Shown piece after piece: positions 402 to 12,769 of a stretch of 13,131 bases of DNA (its first letter is position 1; each line of letters begins with the position of its first letter). Origin of the DNA: a virus; UHGV virus genome UHGV-0327824; one strand, written 5' to 3'. The notes under the pieces are model-generated. The model had not been told where the DNA came from, searched no databases, and was given only the letters and a program-made list of their open reading frames with translations. Position numbers and translations under genes: made by a program.

Positions 402-3224
402 ATGACGACAGAGTACATCAGGGACTGGCAACAACCGCGCCACGCAGTAGGACGTGAAGGAACGGAGATCCCCGCACCTGAATCCGCACTTTCCTCCTGG
501 CTGGATGCCTACCGGGCAGAGAACGAGCGCCGCCAGGAAATGGCTGATGCGGCGTTCTCCGCCACGCCGCTGGGCAACCTGATTAATAAAAGCCTGGACG
601 CACAGGAAAAACAGGACAAAACAATCACACTGGCAGGAGACGCCAGAAAACAGGCACGCGGCGCGGTAGATGAGGCCATGGCCTCACTGCGCCTGCTGCC
701 GTCCTATCTGCGCGATCCGCTTATTCGCCACCTCTCCTTCCTGCGCAAAAAACAGGAAGCCGATCGTCAGAAAGGAAAAAACGCCAGGCAGGCAGAACGC
801 TATGCGCGTGGGACCCTGCGCAAAATATTCGAACGTCTGGAGCGCACCGATCACCGCTGGCTGACATCGGGTTATCGCTCCCTTGCCGGACGTGAACGCC
901 TGGACGATTTGCTTTACCTGCCGCAACTCAACAAACACCAGATACAGACGCTGGCCACCATGACGGCGGCGATGTTCAGCAGCACCTTCGAAAAACTCTG
1001 CGATGGTTTTGGCGCGACTGATGGCGAGCTGACCATGGATGTAACGCTGAAGGTGTATCAGATGCTGGCCCGCATGGCATTACATCTGCACACCATGCCG
1101 CCACATTATGACGCACTGACAACAGACAAAGACCGGAGGAACGAACCAGACACGGAGCTGCTGCCGGGCGCAATTCTTCGCCTGACCTGTGCGGAATGGT
1201 GGAAGCGCAAACTGTGGCTTTTACGTTGCGAGTGGCGGGAAGAACAACTCCGCGCCGCCTGTCTGGTTTCCAGAAAAACATCGCCCTATCTGAGCCAGGA
1301 CGCGTTAAGCGAGTTTCGCGCACAGCGCGAGAAAACACGCGATTTCCTGAAAAGTTTCATGCTGGAAAACGAAGACGGGTTCACGATTGATCTCGAGACA
1401 GTGTATTACGCGGGAGTAAGTAACCCGGTTCACCGTAAGGCAGAAATGATGGCCACCATGAAGGGGCTGGAACTTCTGGCCGAAGCCCGTGGCGACAAAG
1501 CGGTGTTTCTGACTGTCACCTGCCCGTCAAAATACCACGCCACAACAGAGAACGGTCATCCGAATCCCAAATGGAACGGGGCCACCATGCGCGACTCCAG
1601 CGATTATCTGGTTAACACGTTTTTTGCGGCGGTCCGCAAAAAACTGAACCGCGACGGCCTGCGCTGGTATGGCATCCGCACGGTGGAGCCTCACCATGAC
1701 GGCACCGTGCACTGGCATATGATGGTCTTTGCTCATCCGGAAGAAATCGACAGCATCGTGGCCATCACCCGCGATATTGCCATTCAGGAAGACCGCCACG
1801 AGCTGGGCAATGATATTACTCCGCGCTTTAAGGTGGAGTATGTCGACGGCTCAAAAGGCACACCAACCAGCTATATCGCGACCTACATCGGAAAAAACCT
1901 GGACAGCCGCGCCGTCGATGGCATCGACCCGAAAACGGGCAAGCCACGCGTTGACCACGAAACCGGAAAATCAATGGCCGAGAGCGTGGAGCGCGCCATC
2001 GGCTGGGCGCGCCTTCACCGGGTCCGTCAGTTCCAGTTCTTTGGCATCCCCTCCCGTCAGGTGTGGCGTGAACTGCGCCGCCTTGCCAGCCAGATGGCAC
2101 GCAATCCGGAAGGCCCGCAACGGCTGAAAGATGATGCAATGGATGCGGTACTCGCTGCCGCCGATGCCGGGTGTTTTGCCTCCTACATTGAAAAACAGGG
2201 TGGCGTGCTTGTTCCACGCAAGGACTACCTGATTCGCACCGCCTACGACCTCGCAGATGAGCTGAACGATTACGGCGAACAGAGCGTACAGATTTACGGG
2301 ATCTGGTCACCACTCATCGGGGAATCCTCCCGTGTGTGCACGCATCCGGATAACTGGAAGTTGGTAAGACGTAAACCAGAACCAGAAGACAACGCCCACG
2401 AAAATGGTTTTGACCTTCAGGGCGGCCCTGCCGCCCCTTGGACTCGTGGCAATAACTGTCCCCGTGTACAGGAAACGGACAACAACGGGACAGAACAGCC
2501 GGAAGAACGGCCAGCACCGTGGCCGCAGCTTCCTGACGGCGTTGACGTGAACGAATGGATGCGCTCACTGAAACGGCACGAACGCCGGGCGCTGATGCGT
2601 TCGCTGCGTGACAAACAGGCAAAAAACAGCAGTGATGGAATGCAGAGCTGGACACAGAGCCGCAAACAGCAGCGGCCTTTGCCTGATAACCACGAATTAC
2701 TCGCTAAAGAATGGCGGGAATCTGCCGAATCTCTCGGCCTGCATATCGGTGAACAGCAGATGCAGCACCTGTTACGGGGCGGCAGCCTGTACGTTGACGG
2801 CAGCATCATTGCACCGCAGGGATTTGAAATTGTACGCAAACCGGATACCCGCCCGGACAGCCGAATCACGCAGCTCTGGCAGCGCCTGAGCCGTAATCAC
2901 GGCGTAAGCAGCACGGAGATCCGCCATAACCCGGTCGCCAGCTATCTGGAACAGCTGGGGGCATCAGACCCCGAAGCCGCCGCACGTCTGGCATCCACAC
3001 TTCAGCAGGACCAGAACACCATGACCCCCCCCGTTACCGTGCTTTCTGACATGCTGCGCGCCATCCGCGACGCAGAGCACGCACAGAGAATCAGTGAAAC
3101 CACTGAACGTGCCCGCCGCAAAGCAGACCTGCTGCGGGGTGGCCTGACCAGTGGAAACAAAAAACAGACAGAAACGGGATTCACAAATCCCGTAAATGAG
3201 CAAAAAACGCGCCGCGATATATGA
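402..3224 (+). CDS. A: P2 gpA-family rolling-circle replication initiation endonuclease (940 aa)
   Basis: Translation contains a HUH-type motif (VHWHMMVF) followed by paired tyrosines (YIATYIGKN), as in P2/186 gpA. Context supports it: Ogr, D, FI, FII, E in the same window. About 180 aa longer than P2 gpA as I recall it (about 761 aa). Confidence 0.88.
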   Translation: MTTEYIRDWQQPRHAVGREGTEIPAPESALSSWLDAYRAENERRQEMADAAFSATPLGNLINKSLDAQEKQDKTITLAGDARKQARGAVDEAMASLRLLPSYLRDPLIRHLSFLRKKQEADRQKGKNARQAERYARGTLRKIFERLERTDHRWLTSGYRSLAGRERLDDLLYLPQLNKHQIQTLATMTAAMFSSTFEKLCDGFGATDGELTMDVTLKVYQMLARMALHLHTMPPHYDALTTDKDRRNEPDTELLPGAILRLTCAEWWKRKLWLLRCEWREEQLRAACLVSRKTSPYLSQDALSEFRAQREKTRDFLKSFMLENEDGFTIDLETVYYAGVSNPVHRKAEMMATMKGLELLAEARGDKAVFLTVTCPSKYHATTENGHPNPKWNGATMRDSSDYLVNTFFAAVRKKLNRDGLRWYGIRTVEPHHDGTVHWHMMVFAHPEEIDSIVAITRDIAIQEDRHELGNDITPRFKVEYVDGSKGTPTSYIATYIGKNLDSRAVDGIDPKTGKPRVDHETGKSMAESVERAIGWARLHRVRQFQFFGIPSRQVWRELRRLASQMARNPEGPQRLKDDAMDAVLAAADAGCFASYIEKQGGVLVPRKDYLIRTAYDLADELNDYGEQSVQIYGIWSPLIGESSRVCTHPDNWKLVRRKPEPEDNAHENGFDLQGGPAAPWTRGNNCPRVQETDNNGTEQPEERPAPWPQLPDGVDVNEWMRSLKRHERRALMRSLRDKQAKNSSDGMQSWTQSRKQQRPLPDNHELLAKEWRESAESLGLHIGEQQMQHLLRGGSLYVDGSIIAPQGFEIVRKPDTRPDSRITQLWQRLSRNHGVSSTEIRHNPVASYLEQLGASDPEAAARLASTLQQDQNTMTPPVTVLSDMLRAIRDAEHAQRISETTERARRKADLLRGGLTSGNKKQTETGFTNPVNEQKTRRDI
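3172..3196. promoter_or_regulatory. Palindromic site copy 1 (AAACGGGATTCACAAATCCCGTAAA), inside the 3' end of gene A
   Basis: Arms ACGGGAT / ATCCCGT are exact reverse complements with a 6 nt spacer; a near-identical copy lies 73 bp downstream. Confidence 0.45.
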
Positions 3225-3244
3225 AGCGCACACAAAACAGGCAA

Positions 3245-3269
3245 AAACGGGATTTCAGAATCCCGTAAA
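3245..3269. promoter_or_regulatory. Palindromic site copy 2 (AAACGGGATTTCAGAATCCCGTAAA), about 30 bp upstream of the ParM-like start; candidate operator/centromere
   Basis: Same 7-6-7 inverted repeat as copy 1, followed by an AT-rich -10-like stretch (TTAATTAAT) and the RBS AAGGAAAA of the ParM-like gene. Confidence 0.45.
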
Positions 3270-3300
3270 CGATTAATTAATCAACATAAGGAAAAGCGAC

Positions 3301-4264: not shown

Positions 4265-4579
4265 ATGACGACACCAACCAGACGGATAAGTTTCTATCTG
4301 AAGCCAGTCGCCGTCAATAGTGAACGGGAGGCGTGTAATTACCTCGACAGCCTGCCAGCCTCTGAACGCAGCCGCGCGCAACGCGCGGCCTTTCTGGCCG
4401 GGCTGGCACTCATAAAACGCGATCCTGCATTTGCCTATTGGTTGGCCGAATGGCCGGAAGAAGGAGCTGCGCCAGCCAAGAATAATATTCAGAGTAAATA
4501 TGCCAGCACACCTGCCACCGGAAGCAATCACAGCACTAGCGAGATAAGAAAGAACATTCAGTCATTTTTCCCAGAGTGA
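4265..4579 (+). CDS. parR: ParR/StbB-like centromere-binding adaptor (104 aa)
   Basis: Directly downstream of the ParM-like gene (4 nt gap, RBS GGAG). Resembles R1 ParR as recalled: ISFYLKP vs IAFKLNP, LDSLPASERSRAQRAAFLAGLAL vs LDSIPQGERSRLNRAALTAGLAL. Start taken at ATG 4265, not the longer in-frame ORF from 4220. Confidence 0.7.
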   Translation: MTTPTRRISFYLKPVAVNSEREACNYLDSLPASERSRAQRAAFLAGLALIKRDPAFAYWLAEWPEEGAAPAKNNIQSKYASTPATGSNHSTSEIRKNIQSFFPE

Positions 4580-4598: not shown

Positions 4599-5060
4599 AT
4601 GGCAACTATCCCCAAAAAATGGTTACAACGCAAAATTGCAGACCTTGAATCGTGTCGTGAAGACATCCCGTTTGGCCTTGATGAAAACGATCACAATATG
4701 TTAATCGCACTGAAAATCGCACTCACATCGCTGGAAGCAGAGGCAGTTATGTTCTGTATATCAGGACAAAATGTAGATTCAGAAGAACATGTATCAACCA
4801 GCAAAGCGGTTGTTGATGCCTGGGTTGAAGAATGGAATCAGGTTGACGGAAGTCCTGGCGAACCACTGTACAAAACTATGCCACTCTACTATCACGCTGC
4901 CTTGCCAGCGCCGGTAGTGCCGGAAGAAGCAACTCCGGAAAACGTAGAAATGCTCTCTGGCTATGTTTCCACGTACAAATTAACCGATAGCGAGCGCGAT
5001 ATTGCTGCCGAAATATGGAACGCCTGCCGCGCCGCTATGCTTCATGGGAAAGGAGAGTGA
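4599..5060 (+). CDS. Hypothetical acidic protein (153 aa), third gene of the parMR operon
   Basis: Strong RBS AGGAGAGGAG 5 nt before ATG 4599, 19 nt after the parR stop. Acidic composition, no motif I recognise. Noticeably more AT-rich than the flanking phage genes. Confidence 0.6.
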   Translation: MATIPKKWLQRKIADLESCREDIPFGLDENDHNMLIALKIALTSLEAEAVMFCISGQNVDSEEHVSTSKAVVDAWVEEWNQVDGSPGEPLYKTMPLYYHAALPAPVVPEEATPENVEMLSGYVSTYKLTDSERDIAAEIWNACRAAMLHGKGE

Positions 5061-5061
5061 T

Positions 5062-5325
5062 ATGGCAACTTTAACAAAAAAAGAACGGGCATGGTTGAAC
5101 GAATTACAGGACGTTCTTGATCGCTGCCCATCACCGAAAAAAATTGGTTTTTACACCATTGGCGATAAAAGCATTTACCTGTATGACCTGCGCCGCATGG
5201 ATGAAATCATGGAGGCTCTTGATAATCGTTCGTCAATGGATTGGTGTGTTGCTGTCCATGATATGAATGCAGGGTTTGATGAAAAGATTTTGTTCCCCTC
5301 ATCAGTTGAAAGCACAGCAGGATAA
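5062..5325 (+). CDS. Hypothetical protein (87 aa), translationally coupled to the preceding gene
   Basis: ATG 5062 lies 1 nt after the upstream stop (TGA 5058..5060), with GGAGAG RBS inside the upstream gene's 3' end. Intrinsic terminator follows at 5362..5385. Start is at the internal ATG, not the 5002 ORF-track start. Confidence 0.6.
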   Translation: MATLTKKERAWLNELQDVLDRCPSPKKIGFYTIGDKSIYLYDLRRMDEIMEALDNRSSMDWCVAVHDMNAGFDEKILFPSSVESTAG

Positions 5326-5361
5326 GGACCCAGCAAATATACACAACCTATAAAACACTAA

Positions 5362-5385
5362 AGCGCCTCAGGGGCGCTTTTTGTT
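5362..5385 (+). terminator. Rho-independent terminator closing the parM-parR-orf-orf operon
   Basis: Stem AGCGCC / GGCGCT with a 5 nt loop, then TTTTTGTTT. Confidence 0.7.
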
Positions 5386-5412
5386 TGCACAAAAGTGCAC
5401 AAATTTGCACAA
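5386..5412. repeat. Three direct repeats of TGCACAA at exact 10 bp periodicity
   Basis: TGCACAAAAG / TGCACAAATT / TGCACAATTT directly after the terminator; the middle copy forms the palindrome GTGCAC. Confidence 0.5.
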
Positions 5413-5784
5413 TTTTTTTGAACGACTTTTTACCCTTCCGGCCCGCATGGCGGCTGGATCCGTCAAGGATCCGTGCGTGCACAAAAAAACGCGTTTTTTC
5501 TGCGCGCAGGTGACGGGGGAACAGCCCGCGTTTCAGGGGGTAAATAGCATTCCCTGAACGATGTCGCAGAGACACAACAGAATGGCCATATTTCTCACGC
5601 TGAGCATGAAAAAGGCGTGAGGGCTTTTGATTTGATGGGGTGAAAGGTAAGGCCGTCAAAATCGCACTGAGGCAGCGAGAACATGCAGTCAACGCGGTGG
5701 AATTGCGTAAGAGTCTGACCGTCGATGGTGGCGATAAACTGGAAGGCGTCGTGAAATTATCTGATTGATACAGGAGCTGGAGAG

Positions 5785-5911: not shown

Positions 5912-6436
5912 ATGGTCATTAATTACAAGCAGTTAAGAGAAAAACGGGAGCAGGTAAAGGAGAGCTTTCGCCGCAATGAAGATCTGACCCCGCTTGTACG
6001 CCTTGCCCAGGGCATTGTTGATGCTTATGAAATCTCGCTGGAGCTGCCATCACAGACCTGGACAGATAGCGACGGTAATCGCCAGCATTACGTTTCATGC
6101 GGACTGGAAGCAGCCGAAGGATTTCGCAGAATGCCTTTATCCCAGATCCCTGCCGCTACCCCCAAAGCACGGGGCAGCAATGATGAGCGAAAACTGACTT
6201 TTAGTATTGAAACGGTGGTTGACGACACACCTGGCGAAGTCGCGTTCGTGCACACGCCTGTTTCGATCGCAATGTATAACGATGAAATACAGGTTCGCGT
6301 TAATAATAATATCGTGCCACTTAAAGAAGGTAATTCACCCTACACCACCGTTTGTGAAGCCATTCAATATTACGTTCTCTCTGAAATTGATAATCTCAAG
6401 CCTGACGGCACCCAGAAAATGGTTCAACTCTGGTAA
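5912..6436 (+). CDS. Hypothetical protein (174 aa), orphan cargo gene
   Basis: ATG 5912 preceded by GGAGG at 7 nt spacing; the ORF-track start at 5873 is a GTG without an RBS. Ends at TAA 6434..6436, followed directly by a hairpin terminator. No recognisable motif; AT-rich relative to the phage genes. Confidence 0.6.
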   Translation: MVINYKQLREKREQVKESFRRNEDLTPLVRLAQGIVDAYEISLELPSQTWTDSDGNRQHYVSCGLEAAEGFRRMPLSQIPAATPKARGSNDERKLTFSIETVVDDTPGEVAFVHTPVSIAMYNDEIQVRVNNNIVPLKEGNSPYTTVCEAIQYYVLSEIDNLKPDGTQKMVQLW

Positions 6437-6441
6437 AAAGG

Positions 6442-6467
6442 ACAGCCCCATCACGGGGCTGTTTTTT
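6442..6467. terminator. Bidirectional intrinsic terminator between the convergent 174 aa gene and the tape measure remnant
   Basis: Stem ACAGCCCC / GGGGCTGT with a 5 nt loop; T6 run on the plus strand, and a weaker TCCTTTTT tail when read on the minus strand. Confidence 0.65.
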
Positions 6468-7939
6468 CATCAAGAAGAGCATAAGAGTTAAAACGGATCA
6501 CCTCTTCGCCAAGCCAGTCATTGATGTGCTTCATAGCCTCCATGACGGGCATCAGCTCGTTAATTGCGTAAACCGTCACCCGCCGCATCAACGAGTGCCA
6601 TAAACGATGTGAAAGCCTCTTCCCCGGCGATGTCCTTAAAGAAGGATACCCGGTCAACTTCCCCGTATTTGCGGGTAGCTTTATAAAGGTCAGCCAGCAG
6701 ATCTTCCATCGGGCGCATTTTGCCCCCGGCATCCGAGACGGACACGCCCAGCTCTTTCAGAGCTTCTGCCGCCGCCTTTGGCGGTGATGCCAGACGAGCC
6801 AGGCTGGCACGCATTGCCGTCCCGGCATCACTCCCTCTGATGCCCATATTCGCCAGCACGCCCGCCATCGCTGCGGCCTGCTCCAGCGATATCCCCAGCT
6901 TACCCGCCACCGGACCGGCATATTTCATGGTTTCGCCCAGTGCGCGAAGGTCAGTGTTGGTACGGGTAAACGCTGCGGTGAGTGTGTCTCCGACCCGGTC
7001 CATCTGGTCAGCAGAAAGGCCGAACTGCGTCAGGATATTTGAGCCAATATCTGCCGTCTCGCCGAGATCCATACCGCCAGCCGTTGCCATGCTCAGTACG
7101 CCGGGAAGCGCAGCCTGAATGGCCTGCGGAGTGAAGCCTGCCATTGCAAGAAATGCCTGCCCACTGGCGGCATCGCCTGCGGTGAACTGCGTTTCAGAGC
7201 CAAGTTTTAACGCCTGCTCACGCAGCGCCTTAAACTGCGGGCTGTTTTTGTCGATTCGCGTCAGTGCCTGAACGCGGGACATCTCTTTCCCGAACCCGAT
7301 CGCAGGCTGCAAAAAACGCCCGGCAGCATAGCCGCCAGCCGCTGCCGCACCAATTGCCAGCGCACCACCTGTTTTCAGTTTTCCTGCTGTTTCCTGCGCG
7401 CGCGAATACCGCTCACGCGCACGCGTTACACGCGCAAGCGCCTGCCGTTCGCGTTCAAGCTGATTGTTGTACTGTTCGGTGCGTCTGATGGCCTGCTGGA
7501 TGGTGTTATCGCTGCCTGTCAGGGAAATGCCGTGGCGTTTCAGCTCTCCGCCAAGCTCCCGCATTTTCTGAATTTCCCGTGTGCGCGATTCATTCAGGCG
7601 TTCAAGCCGGGTGCTTAACTGCTGCATCAGCTTTTGTTGTTTTTCGCTGAGCACTGTACCCGTGCGTTGTAACTGATTAAGGGCGTTAAGCTGGCGTCGT
7701 GCTTTCACGATGCCAGCATCCGCTTTACTGACAGCGTCACGGGCGCGCTCAAATGAACGCGCCTGACGCTCGAGATTTTTGATCGCCCCCTGCGTTCGCT
7801 GGATGGAGTCACCAAACTGCCCCATCAGGCGGCGGGCGTTTTCGGCAGGCCGGGTCAGCCTGTCAACGGCGCTGAAAGCGACCCGGATATCAAGAGTCTT
7901 CATTGTCTGCATTCCCGCTGCGAAGTGCCGCCCGCTCAC
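6451..7939 (-). pseudogene. T: Truncated/frameshifted tail tape measure gene (P2 gpT-like): 459 aa N-terminal ORF plus an out-of-frame 93 aa tail
   Basis: Starts overlapping the end of E', as in P2. N-terminal region is coiled-coil-like with long Ala/Gly-rich stretches, typical of tape measure proteins. ORF 6560..7939 stops at 459 aa against about 815 aa recalled for P2 gpT; a different frame continues to 6451 into the terminator. No U gene follows. Start codon ambiguous (GTG at 7939 or ATG at 7912/7903). Confidence 0.65.
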
Positions 7940-12258: not shown

Positions 12259-12540
12259 TTACTCAGCATTCTCCTGCTTCCATTGCCGGATCATTTCATC
12301 GGTAACATCACCCTCATAACATACCACGTCATACCCTCCATTACGGCTATATGCACTGCGTCCACCACATCTACTACCATTCCTTGCATGATTATAAGGA
12401 CACGCACAATTGCCTGGATAAGATTCAATGGATTCTTTAATTATTTCTTTTTTGATCTGAGCATCAGACTTTCCTGTTGCTGCATATCCGCTAAAAGATA
12501 CTAAACAAAGGCAGATTGCCATTAATAAACCACATCGCAT
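12259..12540 (-). CDS. Small secreted cysteine-containing protein of unknown function (93 aa precursor), AT-rich gene
   Basis: Start taken at the internal Met giving a signal peptide (MRCGLLMAICLCLVSFSGYAA | TGKSD). Mature part about 72 aa with four Cys (NCACPYN..RCGG..VCYEG). Markedly AT-rich against its surroundings. The ORF-track N-terminal extension to 12654 has no RBS. Confidence 0.55.
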   Translation of the reverse strand: MRCGLLMAICLCLVSFSGYAATGKSDAQIKKEIIKESIESYPGNCACPYNHARNGSRCGGRSAYSRNGGYDVVCYEGDVTDEMIRQWKQENAE

Positions 12541-12769
12541 ACCGATACACTCTATTACTAACCAATCATAGCCCACATCATAAAATCGAGATGAGGAGTA
12601 CAATACCTTTAACAAGAAGGTGTCATAACGATAATATGTCGTGCAATTCATCAAAAAAAAGATCTATATCAAAGAGATAGAACTCTTATCAGTGCTTCAG
12701 ACATCGGCATTCGAGGCAGCAGAAAAACAGTAAATCTGACGAATTTGCCTTTTCCCAAGATGTTGTCAG

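Follow-up and report, generated by a model that had tools for sequence, protein, structure and literature searches.

A probable cassette of two exchanged early phage genes behind parMR in a P88-like prophage of the genus Xuanwuvirus

The window analysed here is a stretch of 13,131 nucleotides (nt) from the virus genome UHGV-0327824, which megablast identifies as a P88-like relative of phage P2 in the genus Xuanwuvirus. It carries two small open reading frames (ORFs), ORF-A and ORF-B, directly behind the partition genes parM and parR (Table 1). A first-pass annotation had read them as two translationally coupled acidic proteins in the parMR operon and as a candidate for an undescribed accessory system. 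Its layout of the locus is confirmed: genes for proteins of 153 and 87 amino acids (aa) lie exactly 1 nt apart (position 5061), and a hairpin with a T-rich tail follows them as the clean terminator that had been noted. The parR stop at 4579 is separated from ORF-A by 19 nt, and the ribosome-binding site of ORF-A, AGGAGAGGAG, is found directly 5′ of its start. The GGAG for ORF-B sits within the final codons of ORF-A. A consensus scan of the + strand between 4047 and 5360 detected no promoter-like or terminator-like sites. ORF-A and ORF-B are presumably read with gpA and parMR, since the scan predicts neither a promoter nor a terminator between them. The hairpin, which was picked up on the minus strand too, could end this gpA-parMR-cargo transcription unit and possibly acts in both directions.

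Both genes are AT-richer than the backbone and both products are acidic, again as first described. ORF-A has a GC content of 0.473 and ORF-B one of 0.425, compared with 0.554 for parM and 0.55–0.59 for gpA, and the isoelectric points are 4.56 and 4.83 (26 acidic versus 12 basic residues in ORF-A, 15 versus 11 in ORF-B). Profile searches matched ORF-B to PHROG 1714 over residues 1–87 of 87 (E 9.6e-51), and ORF-A to PHROG 5117 (E 6e-27) as well as to PHROG 660 and 60, all of them function-unassigned families. Given these family matches and the purifying selection on ORF-B alleles described below, ORF-A and ORF-B are genuine genes rather than chance ORFs. Neither had a match among Pfam, NCBIfam and PADLOC-DB 2.0 models, and PADLOC-DB 2.0 returned nothing at E ≤ 1 for ORF-A, ORF-B, ParM, ParR or the 174-aa protein encoded further downstream. 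Searches of PDB sequences with the single proteins gave noise only. Literature searches on the PHROG identifiers, on Xuanwuvirus and P88/P2-like/parM, and on anti-defence genes of the nin region retrieved nothing on ORF-A or ORF-B.

Table 1. Coordinates of the two genes, their parts and the adjoining features in the window
Feature	Position	Strand	Description and evidence
ORF-A	4599-5060	+	ATG 4599, TGA 5058-5060; 153 aa; acidic three-module mosaic with EaA/Ea22 frame
ORF-A module 1, aa 1-47	4599-4739	+	Helical N-terminal module, ends in linker ALTSLEAE; DNA matches nt 1-140
ORF-A module 2, aa 48-108	4740-4922	+	Central acidic segment, ends in linker LPAPVVP; DNA matches nt 128-328
ORF-A module 3, aa 109-153	4923-5057	+	C-terminal module, ends in helix WNACRAAMLHGKGE; DNA matches nt 306-462
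Portable translational-coupling junction GGGAAAGGAGAGTGAtATG	5047-5064	+	ORF-B ribosome-binding site, upstream stop, one spacer base, ORF-B start
ORF-B	5062-5325	+	ATG 5062, TAA 5323-5325; 87-aa alpha/beta protein; PHROG 1714 'ST64T Orf-87'; predicted orphan fold
Intrinsic-terminator-like hairpin and T-rich tail	5360-5388 (hairpin 5360-5380)	+	9 pairs, 5 G-C, then TTGTTT
gpA, replication endonuclease, 940 aa	402-3224	+	Pfam Phage_GPA E 1e-130; PHROG 91 'nicking at origin of replication'
parM, actin-like segregation ATPase, 319 aa	3301-4260	+	Pfam StbA_N E 3e-82, ParM C-terminal domain E 3e-67
parR/StbB partition adaptor, 104 aa from ATG 4265	4265-4579	+	Pfam Plasmid_stab_B E 4e-25; start as given by the Prokaryotic Genome Annotation Pipeline (PGAP) in the identical BEC1 locus

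We analysed 92 ORF-B loci, of which 89 were fetched for ORF-B homologues and three had been fetched earlier. Most often ORF-B sits in a lambdoid nin-type region with the order cII-O ... ORF-B-EaA ... YdfU-RusA-Q and no parMR. Co-occurrence with gpA or parMR had been named in the first-pass annotation as a check on the proposed system; ParM or gpA accompanies ORF-B at only about 8 of the 92 loci, which are P88-like. In a Pectobacterium P2-like prophage, an ORF-B homologue is found directly behind a gpA-like gene. A tblastn search of phage genomes found ORF-B in 81 records, with carriers that include the P22-like phage ST64T, Chivirus FSL SP-030 (gp43), Avunavirus Av-05 and phages of Vibrio, Aeromonas and Yersinia. 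We take Chivirus and Avunavirus to be virulent phages. The ST64T protein 'Orf-87' (gp10) is 59% identical to ORF-B and its gene adjoins eaA in the ea region. The surroundings of ORF-B include the gene of the EaA dATP/dGTP pyrophosphohydrolase and, in ST64T, the anti-RecBCD genes abc1/abc2. Of 5426 complete E. coli genomes, 978 (~18%) contain ORF-B DNA, with up to four copies each.

The gene on the 5′ side of ORF-B belongs to one of at least six unrelated classes. ORF-A-type proteins with the C-terminus ..ACRAAMLHGKGE are paired with ORF-B at about 30 of the 92 loci. Other loci have a 163-aa protein of the XF1762 family ending in ..GIRIKGE, a 72-aa protein ending in ..INPYKEN, several further proteins ending in ..IRIKGE, a gpA-like gene, or the unrelated genes gp44 (Chivirus phage) and gp128 (Av-05). 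The XF1762 protein, seen in PhiR44_2 (L001, 5087-5578) as well as at L013, L017 and other loci, resembles the Mom DNA-modification family only weakly, with a score below the threshold (E 1e-4, 22.4 bits versus a cut-off of 27.1). At about 85 of the 92 loci the upstream stop nonetheless lies 1 nt before the ORF-B ATG. The junction AAAGGAGAGTGAtATG is common to otherwise unrelated upstream genes ending in ..GIRIKGE or ..HGKGE, and so is the DNA directly before the ORF-B ATG (..GCATTCGCATCAAAGGAGAGTGAtATG or ..CATGGGAAAGGAGAGTGAtATG). Because the junction is shared across unrelated genes, the 1-nt coupling is a trait of ORF-B's own portable junction and not the mark of a specific pair. ORF-B carries its ribosome-binding site within this junction and would therefore be translated in tandem with any upstream gene. 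These comparisons show ORF-B, at the level of sequence, to be self-contained and autonomous of its upstream neighbour, and the variety of genes that precede it gives no support to an obligate system of two coupled proteins. In one database protein, P0283, an upstream Ea22-like protein is joined in frame, across the junction, to an ORF-B homologue; we give this fusion little weight, since a single-base indel in the junction would yield it. In the Stx2a phage Stx2_716 (L101, 2757-3390), the ..GIRIKGE-stop-ATG junction precedes a different gene of ~64 aa, so that the junction seems to be a general docking point for several small genes.

The ORF-B protein itself is closely conserved. An identical protein is encoded by 12 distinct DNA alleles in E. 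coli phages with a synonymous divergence (dS) of 0.04–0.14. In nine close alleles with an amino-acid change, the ratio of nonsynonymous to synonymous divergence (dN/dS) is 0.02–0.05 in eight and 0.17 in one. These allele comparisons clearly point to a functional gene under strong purifying selection. A profile search of 1.84 billion cluster representatives retrieved 209 members of the ORF-B family, nearly all of 80–90 aa, and the few longer homologues carry extensions or fusion partners with no recognisable domain. Across remote homologues the best-kept positions are E8, W11, P23 and the G34-D35 turn, and closer homologues also keep the C-terminal tail ..FPSxVESTAG. An AlphaFold2 (AF2) model built from a 32-sequence alignment has a predicted local distance difference test score (pLDDT) of 92 and comprises, in this order, a helix, two strands, two helices and a strand. 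Foldseek of this model against PDB gave no structural match (E > 2), a BFVD search found one unnamed homologue only, and none of 97 remote homologues had a meaningful Pfam match. The best PDB match of the 97-member profile, a Prp19 WD40-blade-like hairpin (E 0.025), was dismissed as a local beta-hairpin motif. The ORF-B family is thus predicted to be a well-folded orphan with a fold unlike solved structures.

ORF-A is built differently. Its parts match E. coli DNA separately over nt 1-140, 128-328 and 306-462, with DNA breakpoints at nt 128-140, 306-328 and ~446. The full-length gene is found in 15 of 5426 E. coli genomes, and some part of it in 547. Among relatives, the modules are exchanged independently at the linkers ALASLEAE(P), AAPPAPVVP and ACRAAMLxGKGE. 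BLASTP aligned ORF-A with EaA (gp09) of ST64T over aa 1-71 (48% identity, E 4e-18) and aa 103-150 (39% identity, E 1e-5). Stx2a and Stx1a phages encode aa 39-99 at ~92% identity, and module 3 is attached to other middle modules in the database proteins P0220, P0226 and P0233. P0129, a protein with a PF13935 (Ead_Ea22) N-domain, contains modules 2 and 3 and matches 73% of the ORF-A length at 98% identity. ORF-A is annotated as 'Ea22 protein' in phage 689R5. These matches show ORF-A to be a mosaic of independently swapped modules. Its AF2 model is poorly ordered (pLDDT 59), with helices at 6-18, 29-46, 64-80 and 130-149 and a disordered centre below 50. PF13935 had no Pfam match in ORF-A at E ≤ 0.1, and PF04447 (DUF550), which is present in ST64T gp09 (E 6e-46), had no match in ORF-A. 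Direct homology between ORF-A and Ea22 of lambda was rejected (BLASTP E 24). Of the searches suggested at the outset, the profile searches with both proteins and the structure search with ORF-B yielded no function-bearing match. Published Ea22 variants of Stx phages are themselves mosaics; an additional segment of 63 aa and C-terminal regions that are acidic and unlike one another have been described, along with a DUF551 signature in one variant (PMC10834534). We infer that the central module of ORF-A corresponds to this 63-aa segment, matched by its description rather than by alignment.

The origin and the site of the two genes bear out the earlier view of them as acquired cargo in the hotspot behind gpA. 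By megablast, window positions 4714-5328 are 95–99% identical to 57 Stx-converting and other lambdoid phages, among them 48 Stx2a-converting and nine Stx1a-converting phages, and the flanks are P88-like backbone. A foreign origin is indicated by this near-identity to lambdoid and Stx phages together with the lower GC content, and on these grounds 4599-5325 is classed as acquired lambdoid-type cargo. The gpA gene is the left edge of the P2-type A-Q hotspot, the old/tin locus between gpA and gpQ, in which 1,650 arrangements have been counted in 18,150 loci (Rousset et al., 2022; PMC9122126). Its defining features are found here, with cargo between the replication endonuclease and portal genes of a P2-like prophage and content that differs among relatives. 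The order gpA-parM-parR is kept across Xuanwuvirus relatives (parM follows gpA also in P88, 520873, PhiR44_2 and Shae_phiSM), and the interval from parR to the portal gene is variable. Behind parR, a ClpX-zinc-finger protein and three small ORFs are found in P88, one 89-aa ORF in phage 520873, two reverse-strand genes (DUF4760 and a 280-aa gene) in PV468777, the reverse-strand membrane protein memP in Shae_phiSM, and four forward genes with ORF-B last in PhiR44_2. The linkage to parMR stands as far as co-orientation, tight packing behind parR and the lack of a predicted promoter in between are concerned. A functional link is not supported, given that parMR is genus backbone, that the cargo of relatives differs and that most ORF-B loci have no parMR; outside this genus neither gene is tied to parMR.

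An apparently intact prophage of E. coli BEC1-S17-ESBL-09 (NZ_AP022298, 4,443-4,466 kb) has the order gpA-parM-parR-ORF-A-ORF-B-portal, with parR-ORF-A-ORF-B identical to the window. PGAP names the ORF-A/ORF-B pair WP_000201248 and WP_000224227, both 'hypothetical'. The same accessions are listed beside StbA and Plasmid_stab_B, uncharacterised, in Table S5 of Rousset et al. (2022; PMC9122126). The arrangement, which had been thought undescribed, is therefore already catalogued though unstudied.

Several further observations concern the edges of the cargo. The 3′ third of parR (4418-4579) is unlike that of aligned relatives, and backbone identity stops near 4417. The ParR allele WP_000211293 accompanies ORF-A/B-type cargo in Table S5 of Rousset et al. 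(2022; PMC9122126). In a STEC306 prophage, the gene behind a parR of 79% identity encodes 84 aa and opens with the ORF-A N-module. The left crossover of the cargo exchange may lie inside parR. On the right, directly behind the terminator, (G/T)TGCACAA occurs three times at an exact 10-bp spacing (5385-5412), with a fourth copy ~70 nt further on (5477-5484) and only one more copy in the 13 kb. This stretch is backbone that is kept in BEC1-S17 and P88 irrespective of cargo, and the motifs may serve as a binding array for a protein or as an element near cos. The 174-aa acidic protein encoded at 5912-6436 belongs to PHROG 5091 and has no Pfam match. Its gene is a second presence/absence cargo of the same hotspot, found in PhiR44_2 and PV468777 and not in BEC1-S17 or P88.

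Upstream of parM, a 43-nt direct repeat is present in two copies 73 nt apart, one at the 3′ end of gpA (3157-3199) and one in the gpA-parM spacer (3230-3272), and each copy contains the 20-nt palindrome ACGGGATT-N4-AATCCCGT. By their position, these repeats are candidates for the parC centromere or ParR operator, or they could be terminators read on the minus strand. In the right part of the window, homology to PhiR44_2 covers the last ~120 nt of the portal gene (6451-6573), breaks at ~6573 and picks up again within the tape-measure gene, ~16.7 kb farther along PhiR44_2. The genes for portal, terminase, capsid, lysis, baseplate and tail fibre are therefore deleted, and the prophage in the window is defective. 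A 459-aa minus-strand ORF (6560-7939) is a truncated tape-measure protein (PhageMin_Tail). Past ogr, near the right end of the prophage, a 131-aa minus-strand ORF (12259-12654) has a GC content of ~0.40, a cysteine-rich C-terminal part and no Pfam match, and may represent either host DNA or a second site of cargo.

Overall, we consider it rather probable that ORF-A and ORF-B form a two-gene cassette of swapped early phage accessory genes in a P88-like hotspot, and that each acts on the host independently. The source of the cassette would be a reservoir of small early 'ea/nin' accessory genes, exchanged freely by recombination between phages of enterobacteria, and it now lies in the gpA-gpQ cargo hotspot of a Xuanwuvirus prophage, behind the genus-core parMR. 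There the two genes would be transcribed with gpA-parMR as part of an early/replication unit. Each protein would separately be a non-essential modulator of the host cell that benefits the phage, with host takeover, counter-defence and an Ea22-like influence on the lysis-lysogeny outcome as candidate roles, and neither would belong to a defence system of the prophage or assist in partition. The recurrent place of ORF-B behind replication and recombination genes, in temperate and reputedly virulent phages, favours such an early role over a defence expressed in the lysogen. Some points weigh against this account. The label of host-directed early accessory protein is derived from genomic context, and parMR could have a ParR-regulated promoter that is active in the lysogen. 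Taken at face value, the P0283 fusion hints at a joint function. A fold-level relationship of ORF-A could have been missed, since its model is poor. In addition, the gpA-gpQ hotspot is enriched in defence systems (PMC9122126).

A sharper form of the same account, possible though rather unlikely in our judgement, is that ORF-B, alone or with ORF-A, is an early anti-defence protein that blocks a host immune or nuclease component. Its presence in temperate and reputedly virulent phages, always in early, replication or recombination accessory regions, would suit such a role, as would its neighbours (the XF1762 protein with its weak Mom match, the EaA pyrophosphohydrolase, and abc1/abc2 in ST64T) and its small, acidic and strongly conserved sequence with the highly conserved ..FPSxVESTAG tail. 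Speaking against it, the PDB, BFVD, Pfam, Foldseek and profile searches revealed no sequence or fold similarity of ORF-B to characterised proteins, and its modest net charge makes it unlike a DNA mimic. For the more strongly acidic ORF-A, a role as an anti-restriction DNA mimic of the Ocr/ArdA type is conceivable, although its sequence had no match in the PDB and its model is too poor for the surface to be analysed. A sequence-motif search of the supplements of one large accessory-gene screen (PMC12373910) did not find it either. With similar caution we entertain the broader idea that ORF-B is the founder of a small-protein family with a new fold, carried as a plug-in cassette with its own junction by temperate and reputedly virulent phages of Enterobacterales, Vibrio and Aeromonas. 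It would neutralise a host factor of wide distribution, with an immune or nuclease component as the most plausible target, and in the same vein it may be that the EaA/Ea22 frame of ORF-A is a general scaffold showing interchangeable central domains. Another alternative is that this exact ORF-A is a by-product of linker recombination with no selected function, leaving ORF-B as the sole selected passenger. The rarity of the full-length gene relative to its modules, the poorly ordered model and the module borders that fall on conserved linkers all fit this idea. We nevertheless think it improbable, as ORF-A has an uninterrupted reading frame behind a good ribosome-binding site, an identical ORF-A is carried by the apparently intact BEC1-S17 prophage, and many module combinations, the enzyme-bearing EaA among them, retain the N/central/C frame, which suggests that this frame itself is functional.

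Readings that join the two genes into one system fare worse. A two-component defence or toxin-antitoxin system, carried as prophage cargo in the P2 hotspot, would be in keeping with the site, the 1-nt gene spacing, the single fused homologue P0283 and the ORF-A-type/ORF-B pairs at about a third of the loci. The partner is not conserved, however, with ORF-B standing behind XF1762/Mom-like, 72-aa, Chivirus gp44, Av-05 gp128, gpA-like and other genes; the spacing comes with ORF-B's junction, and the fusion is what a single-base junction indel is expected to produce. Both proteins are acidic, no promoter of their own is predicted, and there is no PADLOC, Pfam or NCBIfam match. An anti-phage defence role, as first suggested, also sits poorly with the occurrence of ORF-B in the reputedly virulent Chivirus and Avunavirus phages, which would be unusual for a host-defence gene, and we regard a two-component system as very unlikely. 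The idea that ORF-A and ORF-B are accessory factors of ParMR, for example adaptors or regulators of ParM filaments, has hardly any claim left. Type II partition systems require ParM, ParR and parC only; parMR is missing from most ORF-B loci and from all lambdoid ORF-A-type loci, and most Xuanwuvirus relatives have parMR with neither gene. The apparent common operon directly behind parR would favour such factors, and so would the co-occurrence of the ParR allele WP_000211293 with ORF-A/B-type cargo (Rousset et al., 2022, Table S5).

If the cassette account is right, a parMR-linked defence system was a tempting false lead that has now been removed. Short conserved linkers (ALASLEAE, PAPVVP and RAA(M/G)...KGE-stop-ATG) appear to permit the swapping of protein modules as well as of whole genes with their ribosome-binding site, and these swaps span lambdoid, P22-like, P2-like and other phage types. 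ORF-B is a compact and tractable piece of viral dark matter, present in nearly a fifth of complete E. coli genomes and in phages of several lifestyles, with a predicted orphan fold, and is in our view the sole part of the locus that merits experiments.

In comparison with known systems, the locus resembles the gpA-gpQ cargo of Rousset et al. (2022) in its position between the replication endonuclease and the portal gene beside cos, and in its likewise variable content. At that hotspot, the cargo that has been validated comprises defence systems, which were cloned together with their native promoters for testing (PMC9122126). Unlike these, ORF-A and ORF-B are co-oriented with the early genes, have no predicted promoter and no match to defence models, and belong to families that also occur in Chivirus and Avunavirus. 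With respect to ParMRC (R1 stbAB), true homologues of ParM and ParR are encoded upstream and the repeats before parM are a candidate parC, whereas ORF-A and ORF-B lie outside any described ParMRC system and are overwhelmingly found without it.

ORF-A has a frame in common with the P22-type EaA (ST64T gp09), consisting of the helical N-module, an ALASLEAE linker, an exchangeable central domain, the PAPVVP linker and the NACR(A/N)AML C-terminal helix. The centre of EaA is a PF04447 dATP-dGTP pyrophosphohydrolase (residues 139-233), whereas that of ORF-A is a 60-aa acidic segment with no recognised domain. This central acidic segment and the C-terminal part are shared with Ea22-family proteins of the Stx-phage type. 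Ea22 of lambda and Stx phages is pro-lysogenic and tetrameric (PMC7093339, PMC10834534). It has a PF13935 N-domain and is encoded in the exo-xis region, whereas ORF-A has an EaA-type N-terminus and resides in a P2-like phage. ORF-B is a full-length member of the PHROG 1714/ST64T Orf-87 family and the same in kind, a family for which Pfam, Foldseek/PDB and profile searches turned up neither a Pfam model nor a solved or related structure. The PHROG families, the entry in Table S5 of Rousset et al. (2022) and the hotspot site were already known; the present analysis adds a map of the ORF-A modules, the portable coupling junction that comes with ORF-B, and the predicted orphan fold and breadth of the ORF-B family.

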